The notes under the pieces: generated by a model
What the model was told of the DNA's origin: nothing
Database searches by the model: none
The model's input: the letters and a program-made list of their open reading frames with translations, nothing else
Shown here: one piece after another, positions 1 through 12,234 of the stretch
How the letters are laid out: each line of letters starts with the position of its first letter
Position numbering within the stretch: position 1 is the stretch's first letter
Translations under genes and position numbers: made by a program
Virus record (IMG/VR): IMGVR_UViG_3300027518_000006
Origin: a virus
DNA: 64,000 nt
Reading direction: 5' to 3' (one strand)

Positions 1-27
1 TGTGGAAGTGTCTACTATATAGGACAT
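1..27 (-). CDS. 5' end of a gene running off the window (MSYIVDTST...)
   Basis: ATG at 27 preceded by TGATATAAT with a 6-nt spacer, matching the recurrent leaderless pattern. Confidence 0.4.
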
Positions 28-33
28 ATCTAA

Positions 34-42
34 ATTATATCA
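34..42 (-). promoter_or_regulatory. Extended -10 promoter TGATATAAT, leaderless start
   Basis: TATAAT at 34-39, 6 nt to ATG at 27. Confidence 0.55.
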
Positions 43-92
43 CTTATTCTAGCATAGATCCCTTTATTTGGCAGGGTAATTATAATGTTATA

Positions 93-698
93 TCAGAGGT
101 ATTCTTTATTTGCAATTATGACTGCCATAGACTCTGGCTTAGCCCTATCTCCACGCCAGTAAACCTCAACAACCATAGCATTATTACTTATATAAGCCTT
201 TTCTTTTTCTGTTGCGTACTTAGATGTCCATCCAGCAGTCTTTATTTTATCTATCAATTCAATACTTGGCCTATCATCATTTATAATAAACTCTTCGCCA
301 TACCATGGGGCATGTAAATCTTCTATTATATACATTTTACTATGTTTAAATAATAAAGAAAAACTTGTCTCTATCATCTCAGTAGTATGACCACCGTCAT
401 CTAAGATAACATCATATAAACCAGTAACATTTTTTATCATTTGTTCTCTATTGGTTTGATCAACTATTCTTAAATCACATCCATTTACAATATCAAAATG
501 TTTTATATCCCACCCTTCAACTACAGTATCTTTATTAAACCACTCTCTCCACGTTTTAATAGAATAGCCAGCCTGTATTCCTATCTCTAAAAATCTTTTA
601 ACTTTATCTTTATCTATATGTTTTTCATAAAAATCTAAATATTTATGATAGGTAGCCTTATCTGTATTATATTTTAATCCTATGTCTTGTAATTTCAT
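93..698 (-). CDS. SAM-dependent methyltransferase, sugar O-methyltransferase-like (MycE/rhamnosyl O-MTase type)
   Basis: TDK..H.Y..FY, LEIGI..G.S...W, VILDDGGH, YIIEDLH motifs. Confidence 0.7.
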   Translation of the reverse strand: MKLQDIGLKYNTDKATYHKYLDFYEKHIDKDKVKRFLEIGIQAGYSIKTWREWFNKDTVVEGWDIKHFDIVNGCDLRIVDQTNREQMIKNVTGLYDVILDDGGHTTEMIETSFSLLFKHSKMYIIEDLHAPWYGEEFIINDDRPSIELIDKIKTAGWTSKYATEKEKAYISNNAMVVEVYWRGDRAKPESMAVIIANKEYL

Positions 699-1492
699 AT
701 ATTTCTATCTTTAATTTGTCTAGACTCTACTGGTATTAACTGTCCTTTGTGTGAAGCATTAATATCTTTTCTTACCCAAGTCATACCAAATGGCTCAGAT
801 AGATTATTTTGTGCATCTCTTTGTGGAAGTCTTTCCGCTAAGGACTGAAAAGTTGGGTCATCGCTTAAGTTAAGATAAGCATTATGATACCAAGGTAGAT
901 CGTAGAAGGCTGGAGAGTTTACTAAAAGCATTCCAGCAGTTGTCCAATGCTCTTGAATCGGTGGATCTTGACTTACAACCTTACCAGACAAACCATAATC
1001 TGGGACATTAACTCCAACCAGTGGCCTATCTACTTCTAACAATTTTTCTACAATATCAACATTTAAAGTTGTATCTGAGTCAACATATAATACTGCTTGA
1101 TAGTTTACTACTCCTTGATTTAATTCTGTACAGTCTTCTCCCCAGTGGTGACCTGAAGTTATTCTTGATCTTTGAGCAAATTCTCTGATAAGGTTACGAC
1201 CTGTTTCAATTCTTATCCATCTATTGTGTGAGGTTACCTTTGACTGCATATCGTTTATTGTATATGTCCAATAGTCTCCATTAACTTCCTTTAATGCTGC
1301 AATTACAGAGTGAAATGGTTCTAATCCTCTTTCATCTAATTCAAATGCAGCAAACCATTTAGCATTAGGAAACTTTTCTATAATTCTAACTCTATCTTCT
1401 ATCCAAGTCATATGCTCTAATCTGTCACATTTCCAAGCAACAAGAGGAGTTCCTATTACAAAATGCTTTTCATAATCAATTGGTTTTAACAT
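695..1492 (-). CDS. GT-A fold glycosyltransferase-like protein
   Basis: VLYVDSD DxD motif, GRNLIRE, DD near C-terminus; lies in sugar cluster. Confidence 0.55.
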   Translation of the reverse strand: MLKPIDYEKHFVIGTPLVAWKCDRLEHMTWIEDRVRIIEKFPNAKWFAAFELDERGLEPFHSVIAALKEVNGDYWTYTINDMQSKVTSHNRWIRIETGRNLIREFAQRSRITSGHHWGEDCTELNQGVVNYQAVLYVDSDTTLNVDIVEKLLEVDRPLVGVNVPDYGLSGKVVSQDPPIQEHWTTAGMLLVNSPAFYDLPWYHNAYLNLSDDPTFQSLAERLPQRDAQNNLSEPFGMTWVRKDINASHKGQLIPVESRQIKDRNI

Positions 1493-1943
1493 AGTTATCC
1501 TTTATTTCTTCTATATAGTCTGAACATATACCAAAGTATCCTAGATCTTTAATATACTTTGTACCCTGATTTTTTTCTGGTAATACAAGTATAGAGCAGT
1601 CAGAAATTTTTGGAGTTCCAGGGTATCCCCAAACAAATCCCTTGCTAGTCATAGTATAGTCATCCATATTATGAAAGAAACAATGTAAATCATTTTCTAC
1701 ACAAGTTTCTAAAGACTTATAATCTTTACAGTGTATCCAAAGATTATCTTTTCTTTCTTTTAACCATTCTAAATCTATAAAATGATCTGGATCATCATGT
1801 CCTAAATATAATTGTCCAAGGTTAGTTCTTAAATCTATTTCTACTTCATACCCCGCAAAAATGGCTGCATCAATGTAGAAGGGGTTATTTTCATTTCTTG
1901 ACACTGGACCATTTAAATTGCCACGATGGGATATGTATTTCAT
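1476..1943 (-). CDS. PLC-like / GDPD-type phosphodiesterase
   Basis: ISHRGN, EN, VEIDL, LYLGHD, LWIHCK, GICSDY motifs. Confidence 0.8.
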   Translation of the reverse strand: MKYISHRGNLNGPVSRNENNPFYIDAAIFAGYEVEIDLRTNLGQLYLGHDDPDHFIDLEWLKERKDNLWIHCKDYKSLETCVENDLHCFFHNMDDYTMTSKGFVWGYPGTPKISDCSILVLPEKNQGTKYIKDLGYFGICSDYIEEIKDNYVKTN

Positions 1944-2647
1944 TTTTCAGTCTGAACCCAAATCCATTGACGATGGTTGTCTCCAGGACCAGTTGGTCTA
2001 ATATCAGATTTATAATTTTTAAACCCTATCTTATTAATCAAATCATCTTTTAACTCTTCTTCATCAGTAATGCTTACATCTGCATGACCATTTGTGCTTG
2101 CTGCTTCATAAACATTATCATAATATTTTGCAGTAGGAATTCCTTCTTTACCACCGTATCCCATTTGAAAACAAAGTTTTCCACCTGGCTTTAAGACTCT
2201 ATATGCTTCTTTTAATATATTAAATCTAATTTCATGTACACAAATATGTTGAAAGCAAATAACTGCAAACATAACGTCATAAACATTATCTTCAATCATT
2301 GATAGATTATCTCCAGAGGTATGATATAAATTAGGAATATCAATATTGTTATATTCTAAATTTACCCTTGACTTTTCTAGATTAATGTTAGATATATCTA
2401 CTCCATCAATTCTTTTAAATCTATTATGAAACTTAACTAAATTTCTTCCTGGACCACACCCATAATCAAGGGCAATCATATCGGTTGTATCAAAGTCTTT
2501 AAAAAGGTATGTATCGTAATCTTTCCAGTCATTATGAGCGTCATAAGATCCAACAACTGGATCTTTAAATTGTAAACTCCATACAGCAGCATATTGATCA
2601 TAATATTTATTTTGCATATTTAAATAATCTTGTTTATTTCTATTCAT
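1940..2647 (-). CDS. Class I SAM-dependent methyltransferase
   Basis: ALDYGCGPGR motif I, GVDIS, YRVLKPGG. Confidence 0.85.
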   Translation of the reverse strand: MNRNKQDYLNMQNKYYDQYAAVWSLQFKDPVVGSYDAHNDWKDYDTYLFKDFDTTDMIALDYGCGPGRNLVKFHNRFKRIDGVDISNINLEKSRVNLEYNNIDIPNLYHTSGDNLSMIEDNVYDVMFAVICFQHICVHEIRFNILKEAYRVLKPGGKLCFQMGYGGKEGIPTAKYYDNVYEAASTNGHADVSITDEEELKDDLINKIGFKNYKSDIRPTGPGDNHRQWIWVQTEK

Positions 2648-4017
2648 TTGTTATTCTCCAAGTAGTAGTTTAAATCTTCAGGGGTTCCTATACCCCACAT
2701 TTTTTCTATTTCTTTTACCCTTATCCTCTTACCATCTTCAATCGCTTGATTAAAAACAGGACAAACGTAAAATTCATTATTAGTTCTTATATCTTTTTGT
2801 ATCATATCTTCAGCATATTTTACATAATCTGATCCATGCTTCCAGTAATAAATTCCTACTGTTGCATTATCTGATATAGGATTCTTTTCTGCTACCTTTG
2901 ATACAAAGCCGTTATCACCAATTTTGGCATAAGACCATTTAGGATGTGTAGCCTTAAAGGTTAGAATCCCACCATCTATCTCGTCAGCATCAAAGGCGTA
3001 AAGACACTCATTACTATTCCATTCTACAATTTGATCAGAGTTTGCAATCAATAAAGGTTCATTGCTATTTATATATTCTTTTGCCAATAAGGTTGTTACT
3101 GCAGCACCTTCTGTTATTCCATTTATTGTTACAATGTCGCATCCTGGCTTGATTAAGTTTAAGACTTGCTTTAAGTTATATTTATGAAAATGTTCTTCTT
3201 GAACTATAAACACATAATGAGCATCTATATTTAAATTATCTACTACGACTTGAATCATTGGCTTACCGTTGACTTCAATTAATGGCTTAGGGAATGTATA
3301 TCCTGCTTGTGCAAATCTAGATCCAGCACCAGCCATAGGAATTAAAACATTCATCTTTTCATTTTTCCAAGGCACTTCTTTTTTCCCTTTCATTTGTAAC
3401 CTATCTATCATATCAAAGAACTTGTCCTTAAGTAGATCATCTGCGTCCTTAATGCCGTATAGGTGCCCTCCAGAGGCTATAGCGCCCTGTCTGCCAATAT
3501 GGGAGTCTTCTACTATTACTGTATTTTGAGGCAAGGCATTTAATGCTGTCATACATTTCCAGTACATTTCAGGGTATGGTTTATGATGCTTTACATCTTC
3601 ATTACTAACTATATATTCTATATATCCTAATACTCCAATGGCATTTAATGCTGTTATGATAGTTTCTCTAATAGAATTACTTGCTACCGCAATTTTCCAT
3701 CCATCTTTCTTTAACTGCTTTATTATAGATATTGCTGTTTTATTTTCTGGAAGTTTTTGTAATATATCTATGGTCTGTCTTTGTTTTTCTTTCCATACCT
3801 GATCGTGATACTCTACTGGAAGTCCTTTTAATTCTGTTAACATTTTTAATTTCATAGTAGTTCCAAGACCATCATATTTTGACAAATGTTCTTCTCTAGT
3901 AACAACAAACTTAGGGTTAATCTTTATAAGAGCACTATTTAGTGCGTCATAGTGAACATCTCTAGAGTCAATTAGAACTCCATCAAGATCGAATATAACT
4001 AATTTATTATCGTACAT
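2644..4017 (-). CDS. HAD phosphatase fused to BcbE-like sugar-phosphate nucleotidyltransferase
   Basis: N-terminal IFDLDGVL, KPYP, VEDS..G (HAD); C-terminal IPMAGAGSRF, PKPLIEV, NSDQ, GIGTPEDL. Start set at MYDNKLV (4017); the track's 4077 start overlaps the upstream gene. Confidence 0.85.
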   Translation of the reverse strand: MYDNKLVIFDLDGVLIDSRDVHYDALNSALIKINPKFVVTREEHLSKYDGLGTTMKLKMLTELKGLPVEYHDQVWKEKQRQTIDILQKLPENKTAISIIKQLKKDGWKIAVASNSIRETIITALNAIGVLGYIEYIVSNEDVKHHKPYPEMYWKCMTALNALPQNTVIVEDSHIGRQGAIASGGHLYGIKDADDLLKDKFFDMIDRLQMKGKKEVPWKNEKMNVLIPMAGAGSRFAQAGYTFPKPLIEVNGKPMIQVVVDNLNIDAHYVFIVQEEHFHKYNLKQVLNLIKPGCDIVTINGITEGAAVTTLLAKEYINSNEPLLIANSDQIVEWNSNECLYAFDADEIDGGILTFKATHPKWSYAKIGDNGFVSKVAEKNPISDNATVGIYYWKHGSDYVKYAEDMIQKDIRTNNEFYVCPVFNQAIEDGKRIRVKEIEKMWGIGTPEDLNYYLENNK

Positions 4018-4672
4018 TGGCTGGCTTCGGTCCCGCATGTCTATGCCATTTGTTATGTCTAACAATAGCACCTCCATTGCATTTCATTACATACTTATTA
4101 CGAACCCTCATTGACCACTCAACATCTTCTTCTTCGTCCCAACCACGACTTTCATCAAGAGGCTCTTCAATCATTACGTGTTTTTTAACAATAAAGAATC
4201 CACCTGAGATATACATATACTCTGTTTGAGACCAATCGTCATAATTCAAAGACCAGGCTCTTCCATAACCAGGCTTGTCCCACAAAGACCAATCCATAGG
4301 ATTACGCATCCCTGTAATTAGAAACTGAGGACAGGAACATATATCCCAATCAGTTCCAAATTTTTTAAAACTTTCATACCAATTTTGATCAAAAACGTGG
4401 TAGTCATGCATTAAAACTATATTTTCATACTTAGATTCTTTAACTAAAACATTCTTCTTTCTTGTGATCCACATTGGTTTTTGACTTTCATCAAAGTCTA
4501 CCTTACGAATATCTGGTCCATCTATACCTTCACTATCTCCACCACCAACAAATAGTATTTCATATTCTGGAATACTTAAATCACGAATGCTTTTTATAAT
4601 GTGCAATAGTCTATCTTTATCTTGATATGTTGTTATTATTCCAAATGTCCATTGGATATCATTCATTGTCAA
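4007..4672 (-). CDS. GT-A/GT2-like glycosyltransferase
   Basis: TFGIIT, YEILFVG, KKNVL..ESKYENIVLMHDY, WDEEEDVEWS. Confidence 0.7.
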   Translation of the reverse strand: MTMNDIQWTFGIITTYQDKDRLLHIIKSIRDLSIPEYEILFVGGGDSEGIDGPDIRKVDFDESQKPMWITRKKNVLVKESKYENIVLMHDYHVFDQNWYESFKKFGTDWDICSCPQFLITGMRNPMDWSLWDKPGYGRAWSLNYDDWSQTEYMYISGGFFIVKKHVMIEEPLDESRGWDEEEDVEWSMRVRNKYVMKCNGGAIVRHNKWHRHAGPKPANVR

Positions 4673-5588
4673 ATCCTGTTGCTATAACTGTTACACGAAT
4701 TTGATCTTCTAAAGTTTCATCTACTACTGTACCAAAAATTATATTTGCATCTTCATGAGCATTATCAGATACTGCAGTTGTTATTGTTGAAACTTCAGCC
4801 ATTGTGATATTAGAGGATGATGCAATTGAAAGAAGAATACCTTTTGCACCCTTTAAATTAACATCTAAAATAGGGCTAGTCGTTGCTGATTCTGCTGCTT
4901 GATCTGCTCTATTCTTTCCTTCTCCAAATCCAAGACCCATGAATGCTGTTCCTGCGTTCTCCATTACACGTCTTACGTCTGCAAAGTCCACGTTAATAAA
5001 CCCAGGGGTAGTAATTAAATCAGTAATAGAGGCAATACCTTTTAATAAAATAGTATCTACTTCTTCAAATGCTTCTGTCATGGTTACTTTTGGATCTAAT
5101 AATGTTAATAAGTTTTCATTTGGTATTACTATAATAGTATCTACATTTTCTTTTAATTTTTCTATACCCGCCAAGGCTTTATTCATTCTTTGTTTGCCCT
5201 CAAAAAAGAATGGAGTAGTAACAATACCTATTGTTAATGCACCAACATCTTTTGCTGCTCTTGCAACTACTGGAGCACTTCCAGTACCAGTTCCCCCACC
5301 CATTCCTGCTGTAATAAATACCATGTCTGAACCAAAGACTATATCTTTTATATCTTCTACATTTTCTTCTGCTGCAAGTCTTCCTTGTTCTGGATCAGCG
5401 CCTGCACCAAGTCCTTTAGTAACATTACGACCAATGTCTAATTTTATATTTGCTGTACTTGTAACTAATGCTTGAGCATCTGTATTTAATGCAACAAACT
5501 CAACTCCAGATAGTCCCATATCTGACATACGATTGACAGCGTTAACACCACCACCACCGCATCCTATGATTTTAATATCTGCTAACAT
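4659..5588 (-). CDS. ftsZ: Cell division GTPase FtsZ, core domain only (no C-terminal tail)
   Basis: GCGGGGVNAVNRM, NTDAQAL, GLGAGADP, GMGGGTGTG tubulin signature, PFFFEG, T7 loop INVDFADV; ends VTVIATGFDNE*. Confidence 0.97.
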   Translation of the reverse strand: MLADIKIIGCGGGGVNAVNRMSDMGLSGVEFVALNTDAQALVTSTANIKLDIGRNVTKGLGAGADPEQGRLAAEENVEDIKDIVFGSDMVFITAGMGGGTGTGSAPVVARAAKDVGALTIGIVTTPFFFEGKQRMNKALAGIEKLKENVDTIIVIPNENLLTLLDPKVTMTEAFEEVDTILLKGIASITDLITTPGFINVDFADVRRVMENAGTAFMGLGFGEGKNRADQAAESATTSPILDVNLKGAKGILLSIASSSNITMAEVSTITTAVSDNAHEDANIIFGTVVDETLEDQIRVTVIATGFDNE

Positions 5589-5591
5589 GTA

Positions 5592-5990
5592 TTAAACCTT
5601 TTTATTTCTTTTTGCTAGCAGTTGGTCAAAATCTTTAACTTTTGTATCGCCAAGATATCCCCAAGCATATCCTTGATCAATCATTGCAAGGTTTAGGTTT
5701 ACATCATCAACAAATAACCATCCAAGAATTCTTCCATATTTTTCTGATGAATCCATTTTTTCAGTTTTGATAATTACAGTTTTTGCATGTGCCAATGCTT
5801 TTTTAAGCCATTCTTTTGATTCTAATCCAAGTTTCTTTTCATATAGATCTTTAGTTCTAGATTCTGGGGTATCTATGCCAGCCAGTCTAACTCTTGATGA
5901 AAATGATATATCAAACCCAAGATCAATTTCAACATCAATCGTATCTCCATCTACTACGGCTGTTACTTTTTTTACATGATATTCATACAT
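5592..5990 (-). CDS. Thermonuclease (SNase-like)
   Basis: VVDGDTI, RVRLAGIDTPE, KYGRIL, GYAW; probable start MYEYH at 5990 after TATAAT-N6. Confidence 0.9.
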   Translation of the reverse strand: MYEYHVKKVTAVVDGDTIDVEIDLGFDISFSSRVRLAGIDTPESRTKDLYEKKLGLESKEWLKKALAHAKTVIIKTEKMDSSEKYGRILGWLFVDDVNLNLAMIDQGYAWGYLGDTKVKDFDQLLAKRNKKV

Positions 5991-5996
5991 GTTATT

Positions 5997-6002
5997 ATTA
6001 TA
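5997..6002 (-). promoter_or_regulatory. -10 box for leaderless start of the thermonuclease-ftsZ-glycan operon
   Basis: TATAAT then aataac then ATG(5990). Confidence 0.55.
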
Positions 6003-6504
6003 CCTTACTTCCACAGGGTATATTCCTAATATTTACTAGGTCTTCTTCTGTTAATACCTGATTTTTTGACTCGTAAGGATACATCAAGGAGTTTGGATCA
6101 TCGCTATGATCAAGTCCTATTCCATGCAATATTTCATGAAGCAGAACATTTTTATTTTTCGTAAACATAGATATATAAACATTGTCTATTCTTGCTTCAT
6201 TATAACTATCCATTAATATAGTTCTTCCTAATATATTAGAATCCTTAGATCCTAAATAATATATTTCCATATGAGGTTGCTTTTTCATAGACTTTTTCCA
6301 CTTTCTAAAAGTAAAATTAGATATAGTCTCTATGTATCTAATGGTAGGGATTATTTCATCTTTTTTATAGTCATCATAGACATAAAATAGTTTACAATCT
6401 CTCCATGTTATTTTACCGTGCTTATTTTCTATATATGTGTCAGCAAAAGATATTGAGGGTAGAAATGATATTACTAACGATAGTATTATTATTTTAAGTT
6501 TCAC
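5998..6504 (-). CDS. Secreted matrixin-like (M10/metzincin) zinc metallopeptidase
   Basis: HEILHGIGLDH zinc motif, Met-turn SLMYP, hydrophobic N-terminal signal. Confidence 0.8.
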   Translation of the reverse strand: MKLKIIILSLVISFLPSISFADTYIENKHGKITWRDCKLFYVYDDYKKDEIIPTIRYIETISNFTFRKWKKSMKKQPHMEIYYLGSKDSNILGRTILMDSYNEARIDNVYISMFTKNKNVLLHEILHGIGLDHSDDPNSLMYPYESKNQVLTEEDLVNIRNIPCGSKV

Positions 6505-6704
6505 TAGTTACCCCTATATTGTCTTTCTTCATTTAAATGTTTTAACATTTTTTGAGCATATTCTTTACCTCTTAAATCATCCATAAATAATACTATTTCT
6601 TCTGCCATTTCAAATGGTTTTATATGATACTTAACATCTTGTAAATGTTCTATAAATTCTGCAAGTTCATTAACACGATAGTCTTTATGTTTACGAATCT
6701 GCAC
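6504..6704 (-). CDS. Hypothetical protein
   Basis: ORF tiles with neighbours. Confidence 0.55.
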   Translation of the reverse strand: MQIRKHKDYRVNELAEFIEHLQDVKYHIKPFEMAEEIVLFMDDLRGKEYAQKMLKHLNEERQYRGN

Positions 6705-6957
6705 TCGCTGTTGATTTCTTTAATTGACCAGTTCTAATGCCATGTTTATATGCAAGGTTTGCTGCTTTTCTACGAGCCTTTCTAGCAGCACGTTTTTTTG
6801 CAGGATCCCATGAAGCGGCCTTGTCTGGTCTTTTGATTAAATTATAACCACCACGACTTCTTCCAGTTGCTCCAATGTTTGGTTCTTTTGGATTTTGCTT
6901 TATTGCCTTACCATTTGCTCTGTTAGTATTTCTATCAGATGTTTTCTTTTGTGCCAT
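6691..6957 (-). CDS. Small highly basic protein
   Basis: K/R/A-rich (AKKRAARKARRKAA). Confidence 0.6.
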   Translation of the reverse strand: MAQKKTSDRNTNRANGKAIKQNPKEPNIGATGRSRGGYNLIKRPDKAASWDPAKKRAARKARRKAANLAYKHGIRTGQLKKSTASADS

Positions 6958-6972
6958 TACATTTCTCCATTC

Positions 6973-7257
6973 TCATACCTTTATACCCTTTTTTAATAAT
7001 TTATATTTACTGTATGTCATAACACTAACCTTTATAATATCACTATTTTTATCTAAATAAAATTTTGAATCAGTTGTTAAAAGCACAATAGAACTTTTAT
7101 CTTTTAATAAAATAACTATTGCATATTTTTCTTTTTCTTCTTGTAATTTATTTAAAGAATTTGTTTTTAAGTCTTTGTCTAAGTATAAACTGTTTTCTTG
7201 TGCAAATGATGGAAAACTAATTAAAGATAAAAAAAGTGTTAATGCTATTTTTTTCAT
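6973..7257 (-). CDS. Hypothetical exported protein
   Basis: MKKIALTLFLSLISFPSFA signal peptide. Confidence 0.55.
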   Translation of the reverse strand: MKKIALTLFLSLISFPSFAQENSLYLDKDLKTNSLNKLQEEKEKYAIVILLKDKSSIVLLTTDSKFYLDKNSDIIKVSVMTYSKYKLLKKGIKV

Positions 7258-7436
7258 ACGTTTTCTCTATCTAATGGAGTTGGAGCAGTAACCAAAGTAC
7301 CACACTCTGCACATTCTGAGTCTAGTAAATATTGCTCTATATTATATTCTTCATCAAATGTAACTAAAACTTTAAATATATTAGTACCACAAATAGGGCA
7401 TACGCTTGTTGGTATTCCTCTTGCGTTTAATGACAT
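7254..7436 (-). CDS. Small zinc-ribbon protein
   Basis: CPICG ... CAECG. Confidence 0.65.
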   Translation of the reverse strand: MSLNARGIPTSVCPICGTNIFKVLVTFDEEYNIEQYLLDSECAECGTLVTAPTPLDRENV

Positions 7437-7531
7437 ACTTCTTCTTTCTTAAATGCTCGTAAATTCCTGGTTCTGTAAATACCATCATACCTGAAAATAT
7501 TCCTATTGTCAACAAAAATTCCCAAATCAAT

Positions 7532-7666
7532 TTAACCTCTAGTGTCAGACCAAGATGCCCAGTTTAAATTAGATGTCCTAACCTTTTCTGCAAATGACAT
7601 TCCACAAGTACAGGCAATATCTTTAAGCCTTTTACAATCTTGACAGTAATTTGATTCTTCACTCAT
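7532..7666 (-). CDS. 44-aa Cys-rich protein (not in ORF track)
   Basis: MSEESNYCQDCKRLKDIACTCG...; begins 6 nt after a consensus -10 box. Confidence 0.55.
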   Translation of the reverse strand: MSEESNYCQDCKRLKDIACTCGMSFAEKVRTSNLNWASWSDTRG

Positions 7667-7672
7667 ATATAA

Positions 7673-7701
7673 ATTATACCTCTTTAAGGTGTTTTAGGCA
7701 A
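7673..7701 (-). promoter_or_regulatory. SigA-type promoter TTGCCT-17-TATAAT, leaderless
   Basis: -35 at 7696-7701, -10 at 7673-7678, ATG at 7666. Confidence 0.65.
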
Positions 7702-7756
7702 CCCACCAGCCAAAAACCTCCAGCCCTAGATCCCCTAAGCCAGATTCCCCTCAGTA

Positions 7757-8041
7757 TTAATTTGCTTTCTTATCTACTGAGTTAAATGCATTATTGATTT
7801 CATCGATGCTTAGTCTTCCATCATCAATGAATCCTCGTGCTAGTTTTTCAACTACTGTAGCAACACCTAGAGTTCCTGCAAGAATTATTGCACTCATAGT
7901 ATCTATACCAATAATTGCACCAGCACCAATAACTCCAAGTCCATTGGCTGCAAATACAGCGATTATTCTAAGTAGAATATTTTTAATACCGCTAACTGCT
8001 CCCATTGCCTTTTCGTCATCTAGTTTTGTTTCTTTTGCCAT
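7757..8041 (-). CDS. Small membrane protein (holin-like candidate)
   Basis: Two hydrophobic segments, charged C-terminus; GGAG SD before MAKETK. Confidence 0.5.
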   Translation of the reverse strand: MAKETKLDDEKAMGAVSGIKNILLRIIAVFAANGLGVIGAGAIIGIDTMSAIILAGTLGVATVVEKLARGFIDDGRLSIDEINNAFNSVDKKAN

Positions 8042-8043
8042 TA

Positions 8044-8526
8044 TTATTCTCCTTCCCTTATTCGTATAGTTATTAGCCATACAAACAAGACAGTTATAAT
8101 TGCATACCCTACGATAGTTTTTGCACTACCCTCGAGTACTAGCCATGCTGCGAACATACCTAGTAATGTCCACAATTGGTTTAATGTTTCTACAAATGCT
8201 TCTACTAGCCATGCCCATATAAATTTAACTACTGTCCATACTTTATTTAGTATCCATAGAATTAATTTCCAGGTATTAATAAATACCCATTTAATTGCAT
8301 TCCAGATACTTGTAATAATCCAGGTAATAACTTGAGTACCTTCATTAACTACCCCAACTATTCCTTTATATATACCTTTAAGTATCTTCCAAATAAGATT
8401 AAGAACATATTTAATTACCGCCATAACCTTGATTAGAATAAACTTAACTAGGTTTATGGGTAACATAACTACGAACTTAACTGCTTTGAAGATAAACTTA
8501 AAAGGTTTTAGTATTGCCTTTATCAT
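8044..8526 (-). CDS. Membrane protein with 11-residue amphipathic Trp repeats
   Basis: W at 69/80/91 and 75/86/97; two C-terminal hydrophobic helices. Confidence 0.6.
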
Positions 8527-9923
8527 GTTATCCTCCTTATTTCTGCTCTTGCATTCATCTGCACTATGCTTGAAGACATTGCTACAGATCCTATTAATTG
8601 ACCCACAATAACTGTTGCAACAACAACTGTTTGTGATTCCTCTCTTTCTTCTTCTGTCATATCAGCACCCAATTGTCCAAGTGCTTCTAACACTTGTCCT
8701 GGATCTGATACAAACTCTCCTAATAAGGCCCCAGGGTCTGACAGTTGCTCAAATACAACTGCAACACCTGCTTCTAATTCAACACCTTCACGGTATTCAA
8801 TTATTTGATTTTCATCTAATTGTTCTAAAAATTCTAAAGTTTGCTCATCATTTAATCCTTCAATTAAATCTGCTACTGGCATTGCTTCATCTACTTCATA
8901 ATTTTCAATTAATAATTCTGCAATGTTTTCTAGTTGTTCATCTGTAATTTCTTCTTCATTAACCAATAGTTCTTCAATTGCATTATCCATTTCTTCTTCA
9001 ACTGCTATAATTTCTTCTATAGGAGTTGGTTCTGGTGAAGGTTCTAAAATTATTTCTATTTCCTCTTGCACTTCTTCTGGCACTTCTATTTCTGGTTCGT
9101 CAGTTGGTATCACAACAGGTTCTTCAGTTGGACCTAGATCAATTGGATCAGGATTTGGAATCTGAGTTTCTGTAGGACTTGGCTCTGGACTAGGCTCTAC
9201 TGTTTCTGTAGGCGTAGGAGTAGGGCTAGGGCTTTCTGTAGGTGTCTCTGTAGGTGTTGGTGTAGGACTTGGAGTTTCGGTAGGTGTTGGGGTAGGGCTT
9301 GGTGTAGCACCACCAGTTGACTCATAGATATATCTTGTATATTCATTTGAACCATTTAATCCAAATACAGTTCCTACTCTCCATCCACCGCAAATATTTC
9401 CAGTTCCACAATGACCAGTATGCCAAGATAAACGAAGTGAGCCATCATCTAAATTTCCACCCCATGCAGCATAAACATCTGCAGAATTTTGGTTAATAGT
9501 GCTATTAGGAGCAAATCCTAAAGAACCCATGCCTGTATTAAAATACCAATAGGAAGCGTTTTCTAATATAGTTTGATTAGACATATTTGGTTGAATGGTA
9601 AATACCATTTCTCTTTTACCAGCAGCAAGGAGCATTAAGTTTGAGTTGTTAGTTAGTCCACCAGCGTATAGAATATATTCTTGATCACAAGCAGTGGTTA
9701 TATTTGATAATAAATCAGTACCTCCATAAGTTCCAGACCAACACAGAGCCCATCCACCAGATTCAACTACAGATTTATCAACATTCTGTTGTGGTCCAGA
9801 TGGATAGTAAGATGGTGGGTCTTGAATAGAACTTGCGGGGGTAAAAGAAAAGAACAATGCTAATAACATTGGTGTCAAAAGCATTGCTCTTATTTTAAGT
9901 CTTTTGTTTTTAACCTTTCTCAC
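8523..9923 (-). CDS. Exported, membrane-anchored surface protein with Pro/Thr stalk and acidic region
   Basis: Signal peptide, ~165-aa Cys/Trp globular domain, [10 protein letters not shown] repeats, Glu-rich region, C-terminal hydrophobic segment. Confidence 0.7.
9180..9305 (-). repeat. Tandem Pro/Thr/Ser/Glu coding repeats ([10 protein letters not shown] x~3)
   Basis: Visible gtaggtgttggtgtagg repeats in DNA. Confidence 0.8.
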
Positions 9924-9979
9924 TCCAAGGCAATATATGCCTAGTTACATTATACTTTACTATTAAATAAAGTTATGTA

Positions 9980-10369
9980 TTATGAGTTAAGAATTGTTGT
10001 TGGATCTATATCTTTTCCTGCTGACCAACGAATGTTGTCACGCATTTCAAAATGTAAGTGTGGACCAGAAGAGTTTCCTGTATTTCCACTTAGTCCAATT
10101 GCTTGTCCTTTAGTTACCTTGTCTCCAGGCTTTACATCTAGTTTAGAAAGATGTGCATAAATTACCCATCCACCTTCAACTTTTTGTACTGCTTGAGTTC
10201 CGTATGATTTGCCCCAGTTGGCAGGTTCAATTTTTCCGTCTGCAACAGCAAGAACAGGTGTTCCTGTTTTTACAGCAAAATCAACTCCTGTGTGATAACC
10301 CTTGGACCACATCTTGCCAAGTTTTTTGTAAGGTGTTGTAATTTTTCCATCTTTGATTGGTAATCCCAT
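9980..10369 (-). CDS. M23 family peptidase (stand-alone)
   Basis: HTGVD, YAHLS, G.SGNTGNSSGPHLHFE. Confidence 0.92.
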   Translation of the reverse strand: MGLPIKDGKITTPYKKLGKMWSKGYHTGVDFAVKTGTPVLAVADGKIEPANWGKSYGTQAVQKVEGGWVIYAHLSKLDVKPGDKVTKGQAIGLSGNTGNSSGPHLHFEMRDNIRWSAGKDIDPTTILNS

Positions 10370-10391
10370 TTATATCTCCTAATAAATAAAA

Positions 10392-10419
10392 TAGAGGGGA
10401 AGATTTCTCAACCCCTCTA
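10392..10419 (-). terminator. Intrinsic terminator after ssb
   Basis: TAGAGGGG...CCCCTCTA stem followed by T-rich tract on minus strand. Confidence 0.65.
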
Positions 10420-10436
10420 ATTATTATACTATCTAA

Positions 10437-10859
10437 TTACAACCAAGGATCTGGTTCATTAGAGGTATTTACTGTTGTTGTATTTGAAGATGTTTCCCAA
10501 GGATTGTTAGATCCATCTTTTTTTGCTGTTTTAGAATAAAGTGCAAGACCAACGTCACTTGCTTCAATTTCATAAGCATGTCCATTAGTACCATCACTCT
10601 TTTTAAATTCATGGTATTTAATTTTACCTTGAACGATAACCTTATCACCCTTTTTAAGTGAGGAAGCCATATATTTTCCTAGACTTCTCCATGCAGATAC
10701 ATTATAAAATGCTGTATCTCCGTCTTTCCAACCGCCCTTGCCATCTGGCATACGGTCTGTACATGCAACACGAATATTTGTTACATTTTTATCTGGTCCA
10801 AACTCTTTTGACTCTGGATCTCTTACTAGATTACCCACAATAGTTGTTACTGCTGGCAT
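10437..10859 (-). CDS. ssb: Single-stranded DNA-binding protein, bacterial (actinobacterial) type
   Basis: TIVGNLVRDPE, FYNVSAWR.L, SLKKGDKVIVQG, C-terminal DPW. Confidence 0.9.
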   Translation of the reverse strand: MPAVTTIVGNLVRDPESKEFGPDKNVTNIRVACTDRMPDGKGGWKDGDTAFYNVSAWRSLGKYMASSLKKGDKVIVQGKIKYHEFKKSDGTNGHAYEIEASDVGLALYSKTAKKDGSNNPWETSSNTTTVNTSNEPDPWL

Positions 10860-10882
10860 ATCTTACCTTCTCTCTTCTCTGA

Positions 10883-11128
10883 TTATTTATCTTTGTATGT
10901 TACATCTAGAATAGGGTCTAAAGAAACCCTTGCTCCTAGTTTTTCCAAAGCACCCTTTACCTTTTGTAGGTATTGAATGCACTGAAATCTTTCTGCGTCA
11001 GTGTAATGTCTCCACTGGCTCTCATAGAATTGTATCGTAAGAAAGGCATCATAGTCAAGTATGTCTATTTTAAATTCTTTTGGAATCTTGAATGTTCTTA
11101 CTGCTCTTTTCATTTGATCTGTATACAT
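10883..11128 (-). CDS. Hypothetical protein
   Basis: ORF tiles with neighbours. Confidence 0.6.
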   Translation of the reverse strand: MYTDQMKRAVRTFKIPKEFKIDILDYDAFLTIQFYESQWRHYTDAERFQCIQYLQKVKGALEKLGARVSLDPILDVTYKDK

Positions 11129-11409
11129 TATGAACTCTCTATTACTGCACCAGACCAGGTATTAAACCAGTCTTCTTTTGTTTTATGTGAGTTAAATTCT
11201 TTAGATATTTTGCCACCTTCAAAATATATGCCTCCCCATACACCCCACTCTTGATTACTAACAGCATAAGCCAAACACTGTCTTTGTGCTGGACATGTAA
11301 CACATAAAGAGTCAACAGTTTTTGCAATATTTTTATTTTCTTCATACTTATCAAAAAATAAATTTGTATCCATATTTAGGCATAAAGCCTTATCGTTAAA
11401 CTTGTACAT
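11128..11409 (-). CDS. whiB: WhiB-family Fe-S transcription factor
   Basis: ALC...D..LFF, CVTCP...QCL..A, WGVWGG. Confidence 0.93.
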   Translation of the reverse strand: MYKFNDKALCLNMDTNLFFDKYEENKNIAKTVDSLCVTCPAQRQCLAYAVSNQEWGVWGGIYFEGGKISKEFNSHKTKEDWFNTWSGAVIESS

Positions 11410-11617
11410 GTGCTATAAACCTATCTGGAATATTCCATACACCGTGATCTATCATTTCAAACTTATATTTAGTCATCCATCTATCATTTTTGAATATACC
11501 ATTTTTAGTATAGTACCCATCATCATCTGTATAAATTATAACTGTCCAATTATCCCATTCAAAATTAGGATTAGACTTTACTATTGATTCCATTTTATCA
11601 AAACTATTCACTATCAT
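11396..11617 (-). CDS. Hypothetical protein
   Basis: ORF tiles with neighbours. Confidence 0.55.
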   Translation of the reverse strand: MIVNSFDKMESIVKSNPNFEWDNWTVIIYTDDDGYYTKNGIFKNDRWMTKYKFEMIDHGVWNIPDRFIAHVQV

Positions 11618-11912
11618 ATTCTATTTCCTCCATTAATTCTACACTTGAATTATTTATATATATGTATGTAATCATAACTAAAAATATTTGATATATAGGT
11701 ATTAATACAAATCCTAATTGCTTTGTAACAAGTCCATATGCAAATAGTGTTATTTGACTAAGTATGAATGATGTTACTATAGAAGAAAATAGTAGTATAT
11801 TCCCTCTACCCCCAAAAACTGCTAGGCTCATACAGGTAAAAAAAATAATTTGTGTGAACAATATTATTATTGACCAAGTATTAAGACTAATATCTAAAAA
11901 TTCCAACTTCAC
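11604..11912 (-). CDS. Hypothetical membrane protein
   Basis: Three hydrophobic segments. Confidence 0.5.
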   Translation of the reverse strand: MKLEFLDISLNTWSIIILFTQIIFFTCMSLAVFGGRGNILLFSSIVTSFILSQITLFAYGLVTKQLGFVLIPIYQIFLVMITYIYINNSSVELMEEIEYDSE

Positions 11913-12234
11913 AACTTTCTACTAGTTCTGCTTGTTTGGCAAGTCTTGACAAAGATTCTTTAGGTGCACTAAAAAAAGCAAAGTAATTAACGTAAGATAA
12001 ATTATCTGCTACCCAAAATGTTGGTGCTTTTGAAAACTTAATCTTAAACCCTTTTTGTTTTAAAAAATTTTCTGATGAATTACAAAAGGCAGCGGTAAAA
12101 CTATTTATAGTATGTGGTCCAGCAGACCATATTGTTATTTCAGATTCAGTATTATTAGTTAAAGCAACTCCCATTGCTCTCATAAATATATCATAATCAG
12201 AAAAGGACTTAGTCCCTTCTACGGCAATAATCAT
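11887..12234 (-). CDS. SLOG/YspA-like protein (tentative)
   Basis: IIAVEGTKSFSDY start resembles YspA-type IVxGSRxFxDY. Confidence 0.4.
   Translation of the reverse strand: MIIAVEGTKSFSDYDIFMRAMGVALTNNTESEITIWSAGPHTINSFTAAFCNSSENFLKQKGFKIKFSKAPTFWVADNLSYVNYFAFFSAPKESLSRLAKQAELVESCEVGIFRY

Follow-up and report, generated by a model that had tools for sequence, protein, structure and literature searches.

Why would a phage carry the gene of a bacterial division protein without its anchoring end? The question is raised by a viral DNA of 64,000 nucleotides (IMG/VR record IMGVR_UViG_3300027518_000006; the whole stretch is called the window below), in which an initial annotation had described an ftsZ gene. 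Cellular FtsZ has a disordered linker and a conserved C-terminal peptide for membrane anchors (SepF, FtsA, ZipA). Phages stop host division by small inhibitor peptides, and they build cytoskeletons from very divergent tubulins. In this study, the gene at positions 4659–5588 of the window, its product (phage FtsZ), its relatives, and its surroundings were analyzed, and the possible roles of the protein were weighed.

Identification of phage FtsZ

Both sequence and fold place the product of the gene in the FtsZ family. The four catalytic motifs named in the initial annotation were all found in their places, and the catalytic core was intact. Besides the G-box and the T7 loop (Table 1), GGGGVN (residues 11–16) and PFFFEGKQR (residues 126–134) were read from the sequence. 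The matches to Pfam PF00091 and PF12327 were both above the cut-offs. Like cellular FtsZ, the phage protein also passed the NCBIfam ftsZ equivalog TIGR00065, with 389.8 bits against a cut-off of 295.2; profile positions 18–326 of 353 were covered, and the tail positions 327–353 were unmatched. In a 38-row alignment, the G-box and the T7 loop were invariant, with N199, D201, F202, and D204 among the invariant T7-loop residues.

The best Protein Data Bank (PDB) match of phage FtsZ was Mycobacterium tuberculosis FtsZ (4.8e-112; 58% identity; PDB 1RLU, 5ZUE, 6YM9). Residues 2–307 aligned with residues 8–313 of the M. tuberculosis protein with zero gaps, and the matched span was the globular core exactly as in the crystallization constructs. 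The three-dimensional structure of phage FtsZ was predicted by AlphaFold2 (AF2), with a mean predicted local distance difference test (pLDDT) value of 93.2. The AF2 model showed the FtsZ two-domain fold; against 1RLU and 5ZUE, the template modeling (TM) score was 0.96–0.97 and the root-mean-square deviation was 1.2 Å.

Absence of the C-terminal tail

The linker and the C-terminal peptide were not present in phage FtsZ, whereas the catalytic residues were kept. The protein ended in VIATGFDNE, followed by TGA. The initial annotation had placed the stop three residues past the last core strand, which holds within the definition of the strand end: in the AF2 model, the final strand S10 covered residues 296–304 and was followed by five residues. 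The absent tail that it had claimed was borne out.

The end of the gene was constant among relatives. A word-indexed protein search for phage FtsZ gave at least 8000 candidates. All 120 of the 120 metagenome alleles listed, which came from JGI, ENA, NCBI, and Logan assemblies with contigs of up to 86 kb, encoded 308–313 amino acids (aa) with 91–100% identity. The relatives in IMG/VR, on contigs of up to 94 kb with a guanine-cytosine (GC) content of 32–36%, formed a graded series of 93–97%, 78–81%, and 63–66% identity. The 31 full-length loci of the viral clade (63–100% identity to the window protein) stopped 2–4 residues past ATGF without exception (31/31). The stop/start junction of the type ATGAATGA was also found in locus L142 of the most distant group (the 63% clade).

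Cellular FtsZ was different in this respect. Among the Actinomycetota genomes sampled, 295 of 301 had an FtsZ match, and the open frames among the matches listed were 354–545 aa long with 55–61% identity. The tail was at least 32 residues long in all complete cellular actinobacterial FtsZ (111/111), and an acidic end peptide of the D-[IV]-P-x-F-L type was present in 107 of these 111. No tail-less complete core was found among the best 150 representatives of an exhaustive search. The 301 genomes searched included the unpublished genomes G053, G006, G125, and G093, and the 101 actinobacterial rows on which the comparisons of tail, conservation, and substitutions were based contained three ftsZ loci from these genomes (L110, L118, and L121). 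L110 and L118 were in the quick tree described below; the careful tree and the topology tests were made without L110, L118, and L121, and no conclusion rests on unpublished genomes.

The missing tail is a conserved trait of the viral clade and not an error. A frameshift or assembly error hiding a tail, one of the cautions attached to the initial annotation, was contradicted by the data: no indel was found at the ftsZ stop in independent DNA contigs bridging the stop codon, and the same length recurred in more than 100 independent metagenome alleles. A programmed frameshift fusing FtsZ to the next gene was also considered. It is unlikely, because close relatives carry unrelated downstream genes while the FtsZ end is unchanged.

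Phylogeny and selection

The viral tail-less copies formed one clade in a quick tree of 113 rows (Shimodaira–Hasegawa-like approximate likelihood ratio test, SH-aLRT, 100) and in a careful tree of 63 rows (100/100). The stem of this clade was long, with 0.64–0.85 changes per site (0.64 in the careful tree). In the best tree, the viral clade was grouped with Actinomycetota at 68/32 support and was not nested inside Actinomycetota. In approximately unbiased (AU) tests, forcing phage FtsZ next to Nanopelagicaceae cost 20.6 log-likelihood units (p-AU 0.114), and forcing it next to Bacillota-like sequences cost 4.6 units (p-AU 0.394); neither position was rejected. The identity of phage FtsZ was 58–61% to Actinomycetota versus 50–56% to others.

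Phage FtsZ differed from cellular Actinomycetota FtsZ in further traits. The residue before GGGTGTG was Met in the phage copies and Glu in actinobacteria, 37 substitutions were specific to the phage clade, and the phage copy was also short of 6–8 N-terminal residues. The description of the protein as actinobacterial-looking is therefore accepted in part: the best identities and the best PDB match agree with it, and the unnested position, the tolerated Bacillota-like sister, and the Met for Glu do not. Similarity points to Actinomycetota, but neither the phylogeny nor the AU tests decide the donor lineage.

The ftsZ gene of the phage is under purifying selection and is selectively maintained. 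The pairwise ratio of nonsynonymous to synonymous substitution rates (dN/dS) was 0.05–0.10 in the close clade, and 0.11–0.24 at depths where dS is saturating. In 247 cellular FtsZ, 78 positions show conservation of at least 95%; 74 of these were kept across the phage clade, and the other four showed conservative changes. Only three positions (L240I, G257S, and A269I) were fixed in the phage clade differently from a strong cellular consensus. The per-site variability of phage and cellular FtsZ gave Spearman coefficients of 0.56–0.67, compared with 0.75 for two cellular sets. Nine positions were invariant in the phage clade and variable in cells. A tail-less phage clade with purifying selection and an invariant T7 loop, as the initial annotation had anticipated, was thus recovered, and relaxed selection was not observed.

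These results also bear on whether the gene is real. An artefact of assembly, contamination by host DNA, or a truncated gene that was captured recently and is drifting has practically no chance of explaining ftsZ and can be regarded as refuted. Nothing was found in its favor. In GenBank, several "phage" records matching FtsZ were unverified or bacterial, and FtsZ is probably host DNA in them; three of the four records inspected encoded a full-length protein of 387–413 aa with the usual C-terminal peptide. In the window, phage genes flank ftsZ on one strand across the whole 64 kb, as expected from the claim that the gene is phage-encoded, and the flanks were not those of a host chromosome. Many independent assemblies from 15 studies, the clean stop, the low dN/dS, and the same end down to 63% identity likewise stand against an artefact.

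Proposed role of phage FtsZ

In E. coli and Caulobacter, FtsZ with a C-terminal deletion acts as a dominant negative, and division is often disturbed by a heterologous FtsZ. Many phages block FtsZ via small proteins, such as lambda Kil and T7 Gp0.4. In this setting, the reading that we prefer, with chances judged to be about even, is that phage FtsZ acts as a dominant-negative subunit: it would enter filaments together with host FtsZ and block septation.

In the proposed mechanism, phage FtsZ would be made during infection of a freshwater actinobacterium at levels comparable to those of host FtsZ. Since the nucleotide pocket and T7 loop are preserved, as are other universally conserved positions, it would co-assemble with host FtsZ or cap host filaments. 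The mixed filaments would have a lower density of C-terminal peptides. Since such filaments would carry too few anchoring peptides, the Z-ring would be poorly tethered by SepF, and the septal machinery would be badly recruited or activated. Septation would then stop, and the very small host cell would stay a single undivided, enlarging compartment in which virions and a genome of over 90 kb are made.

The closest experimental precedent has been reported in Agrobacterium tumefaciens, where the truncated FtsZ1 co-polymerizes with full-length FtsZ, and continuous expression of FtsZ1 causes a complete, GTPase-dependent division block with large round cells (PMC13732431). The division-poison reading gains experimental precedent from this protein. 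A WhiB-like regulator is encoded elsewhere in the window (Table 1), and a phage WhiB is reported to hinder host septation, as cited in PMC10202952. WhiB may thus be a second possible hit of the phage on host septation.

Several points weigh against a dominant-negative subunit. Co-assembly is assumed, and phage FtsZ is only about 58% identical to the FtsZ of the candidate host. FtsZ is more diverged than its neighbors between sub-lineages (63–81% versus 80–98%), which could reflect adaptation to something besides the slowly evolving host FtsZ. The identity of phage FtsZ, its fold, its conserved truncation, the purifying selection on it, its phage context, and its lake habitat are shown by the data, whereas its role and its level during infection are what we infer. 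A complex prediction with phage FtsZ, the Nanopelagicaceae FtsZ core, and GTP gave a score of 0.00, which speaks neither for nor against binding.

Comparison with known systems

A. tumefaciens FtsZ1 and its relatives in Rhizobiaceae and Phyllobacteriaceae (PMC13732431; bioRxiv 10.1101/412759) are similar to phage FtsZ in several ways: they consist of a GTPase core that lacks the linker and C-terminal peptide, their catalytic and interface residues are conserved, and a full-length FtsZ is present in the same cell. They differ in genomic context: FtsZ1 is an alphaproteobacterial chromosomal paralogue thought to tune the division of its own cell, while phage FtsZ is viral and its full-length partner is in the host genome. 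The phylogeny of phage FtsZ was built without any FtsZ1 sequence, and the nearest relatives found were Actinomycetota (58–61%). In its proposed action, phage FtsZ is most like these paralogues, but it probably arose independently of alphaproteobacterial FtsZ1 and would act on the FtsZ of another genome.

A block of host division, the outcome proposed for phage FtsZ, is also that of small phage peptides acting on FtsZ (lambda Kil, T7 Gp0.4, prophage DicB, and others) and of the TM4 WhiB-like protein, a transcription factor that hinders septation. There is no sequence relationship to any of them, and the proposed inhibitor is here a copy of the target minus its anchoring end.

PhuZ and TubZ, like phage FtsZ, are phage-encoded and belong to the tubulin/FtsZ superfamily. 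Membership of phage FtsZ in either group was rejected. The PhuZ family PHROG 4733 matched it at only 2.9e-05 and 24 bits, and the viral tubulins in BFVD were 11–20% identical to it with TM scores of 0.60–0.80. In PhuZ and TubZ, filament contacts or the binding of an adaptor depend on the C-terminal tail. Unlike them, phage FtsZ has no tail, and no DNA-binding adaptor was recognized beside ftsZ.

These comparisons are relevant to a second role, in which phage FtsZ polymerizes alone and forms cytoplasmic filaments that organize phage DNA replication, capsid traffic, or genome positioning via a phage adaptor on the globular core. Such a role is possible but rather unlikely. The GTPase and polymerization residues are intact, the genome is fairly large (>90 kb), and FtsZ diverges faster than its flanks, as expected from co-evolution with phage partners and not with host FtsZ. 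The nine positions invariant only in the phage clade would also fit. Against it, the PhuZ match is weak, phage FtsZ is far nearer to cellular FtsZ than to the viral tubulins of BFVD, and it lacks the tail on which PhuZ and TubZ rely. No gene is a constant companion of ftsZ: the 63% clade lacks the adjacent nuclease gene, and L002–L004, L138, L139, and L143 lack the 221-aa gene on the other side. No TubR-like, ParB-like, partition, or integrase gene was found among the open reading frames (ORFs) scanned in the window. In a more specific history, lake actinophages would have acquired a canonical FtsZ core long ago and turned it into a virus-run cytoskeleton independent of the host ring, with phage adaptors on its globular surface; this is doubtful as well. 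If true, PhuZ and TubZ would be joined by a third viral tubulin system that evolved independently, the first from a bona fide FtsZ, in some of the smallest free-living cells.

If phage FtsZ is instead a dominant-negative subunit, the strategy would be a different one from those described above: a polymer would be poisoned with a defective subunit, by a virus carrying the division protein minus its anchoring end. No paper on a phage-borne canonical FtsZ was found in the literature on phage or viral FtsZ, freshwater and marine actinophages, jumbo phages, and phage G; the literature match for "phage-encoded FtsZ" concerned T7 Gp0.4 only. PHROGs and BFVD contained no close viral relative of phage FtsZ. 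Sequences of phage ftsZ are public under the pipeline label "cell division protein FtsZ" and have apparently not been discussed. Lakes harbor this phage family in abundance, and dominant freshwater Actinomycetota are its probable prey. Phage FtsZ is a natural, long-selected minimal core for probing the role of the linker and C-terminal peptide in SepF-dependent division, and its clade-specific substitutions could show which core surfaces may change without loss of function.

Gene neighborhood of ftsZ

The features of the ftsZ region are listed in Table 1.

Table 1. Features of phage ftsZ and of selected genes in the window
Feature	Position	Strand	Remarks
Phage ftsZ	4659..5588	-	309 codons and TGA stop; complete FtsZ globular core
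N-terminal GTPase domain, residues 5–163	5100..5576	-	Pfam PF00091 Tubulin/FtsZ GTPase, 1.2e-45
G-box GGGTGTG, residues 97–103	5280–5300	-	Read from sequence
T7 synergy loop NVDFAD, residues 199–204	4977..4994	-	Two catalytic Asp corresponding to E. coli D209 and D212
FtsZ_C subdomain, residues 213–307, closing with strand S10 (296–304)	4668..4952	-	Pfam PF12327, 1.5e-30; DSSP on AF2 model
Stop of ftsZ overlapping ATG of next gene, ATGAATGA	4659..4666	-	Coupled junction, no room for tail
Staphylococcal-nuclease-like (SNase) gene, 3 nucleotides upstream of ftsZ	5592..6014	-	PF00565, 8.1e-17
Conserved gene, 215–221 aa, directly 3' of ftsZ	4007..4672	-	First gene of sugar-modification cassette
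WhiB-like regulator	11128..11409	-	PF02467, 3.9e-13, above cut-off; same gene in relatives

Cellular ftsZ of Actinomycetota lies in the dcw cluster beside sepF (ftsQ/ftsZ/sepF). This context was not found for phage ftsZ, whose neighbors are a nuclease gene and sugar-modification genes. In a Nanopelagicaceae metagenome-assembled genome (MAG) and in many other Actinomycetota, sepF was about 2 kb from ftsZ, in line with SepF as the host anchor. The window contained no SepF homologue, and no anchor substitute was found. Matches to Pfam FtsA (PF14450) passed the cut-off in three MAGs of Actinomycetota, Nanopelagicaceae among them (G002 C29 2290–2784; G003 C95; G004 C587); these matches may be other actin-fold proteins rather than FtsA.

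The SNase–ftsZ pair kept its synteny in the close clades but was missing from the 63% clade, where small unknown genes and a 164-nucleotide gap precede ftsZ. The position of ftsZ directly after a nuclease gene could suggest that phage FtsZ is an extra supply, keeping host division or septal wall synthesis going once the nuclease degrades host DNA. The label "cell division protein FtsZ" given to the gene by JGI pipelines agrees with such a helper. It is nevertheless highly improbable: a tail-less FtsZ has no SepF tethering or divisome recruitment and, as stated above, no anchor substitute was found, and the missing tail is the one feature retained throughout the viral clade.

On the 3' side, the 215–221-aa gene had no Pfam, PHROG, or NCBIfam match. 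It was 80–92% identical in 21 related loci, and other genes were in its place in further loci. The cassette that it opens in the window (93–4672, minus strand) also included a HAD-nucleotidyltransferase fusion and methyltransferases, indicating sugar activation and methylation. Another cassette was observed in a 61.5-kb relative (L237, 9930–14507), with two DUF8361 genes, AP_endonuc_2 (sugar-phosphate isomerase-like), an epimerase, and a DAO oxidase. The ftsZ gene therefore borders a swappable island and has no companion gene shared by all clades.

The identity of ftsZ and of its flanking genes was compared over positions 93–8500 of the window. In L127–L135, FtsZ was 78–81% identical and the flanking genes were 90–98% identical; in L136–L146, the values were 63–66% and 80–83%. 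The ftsZ gene is a diverged island, which suggests allele exchange or faster change at ftsZ.

Allele mosaicism of this kind resembles arms-race loci and is relevant to a further role, in which the tail-less core is a decoy. It would titrate host factors that bind the globular domain of FtsZ (negative regulators, proteases, kinases, or FtsZ-watching defense) and thereby protect the infection. A defense protein that senses a complex of a phage protein with FtsZ has been reported (PMC13423816), which makes FtsZ a known node of phage–host conflict. Still, we consider a decoy improbable. The dN/dS values indicate plain purifying selection and not diversifying selection, and no defense or counter-defense genes were recognized next to ftsZ. 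The C-terminal peptide, to which most of the known FtsZ partners in actinobacteria bind, is not present in phage FtsZ.

Upstream of the ftsZ region, a matrixin-like zinc protease (Peptidase_M10; 5998–6504, minus strand) and a 94-aa protein (6973–7257, minus strand) both had signal-peptide-like N-termini. Secreted proteins are unusual cargo for an early or middle phage region.

Phage genome, host, and habitat

The window is DNA of a tailed phage from lakes whose host is an actinobacterium. Nearly all its long ORFs were on one strand, and the GC content was about 33%. The structural and packaging genes encoded a major head protein, prohead protease, portal, large terminase (TerL), and tail spike. 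The other genes included ribonucleotide reductase, a 1093-aa DNA polymerase (PHROG 405), RecA, primase, DnaB helicase, single-stranded DNA-binding protein (SSB), and an M23 peptidase. The head protein was nearest to those of Streptomyces phages, with about 42% identity. WhiB is treated as an actinophage marker (PMC3861242; PMC10202952), and the host was assigned as an actinobacterium because this tailed phage carries WhiB. Nanopelagicales are an obvious candidate host. No transfer RNAs that could assist host assignment were found.

DNA carrying the ftsZ region was found in 15 studies, mostly of lake-water or freshwater metagenomes; the three best were labeled subsurface. The search of RNA data gave no dataset with half or more of the sequence words of the ftsZ region. 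Two lake metatranscriptome runs contained small shares of these words (0.06 and 0.04). Metatranscriptome contigs with 89–95% identity covered parts of the ftsZ of a relative (5325–5617, 5079–5215, and 4878–5081), where carry-over of DNA is possible, so that they are not proof of expression. Short RNA pieces at 5284–5324 were the G-box of other organisms. A promoter and terminator scan over positions 1–12000 gave 57 promoter-like sites, against 59 expected from shuffles.

The full phage genome is probably about 110 kb, because related contigs of 39–81 kb were rated 36–70% complete by CheckV, and a hypervariable stretch probably follows TerL. Breaks 1–6 kb downstream of the terminase gene were found in nearly all of the related viral contigs (TerL loci L157–L236). 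Five of the long contigs bearing TerL were without ftsZ, yet none of them extends to the ftsZ region. The nearest virus record (G001) also stops before this region.

Other viral and cellular FtsZ sequences

A different viral FtsZ was observed at positions 6001–6879 of L148 (IMG/VR 3300009163_000101, 34.5 kb). It was 340 aa long and 53% identical, with a short tail ending in DFRDLFKK. The portal of this contig was 46% identical to that of the window, and its FtsZ was grouped with Acidimicrobiia-like FtsZ on a long branch. It may be a second, independent capture that kept a peptide-like end.

Among the representatives searched, P0121 was an 840-aa protein with two complete FtsZ cores in tandem, proline-rich linkers, and an end peptide of the IPEFLRR type. 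Matches in both cores gave it the highest score of all representatives. Two ftsZ copies lay head to tail in one actinobacterial genome (G247, contig C180, 1797–3774), with open frames of 359 and 401 aa. Two FtsZ matches were also observed in several other sampled actinobacterial genomes.

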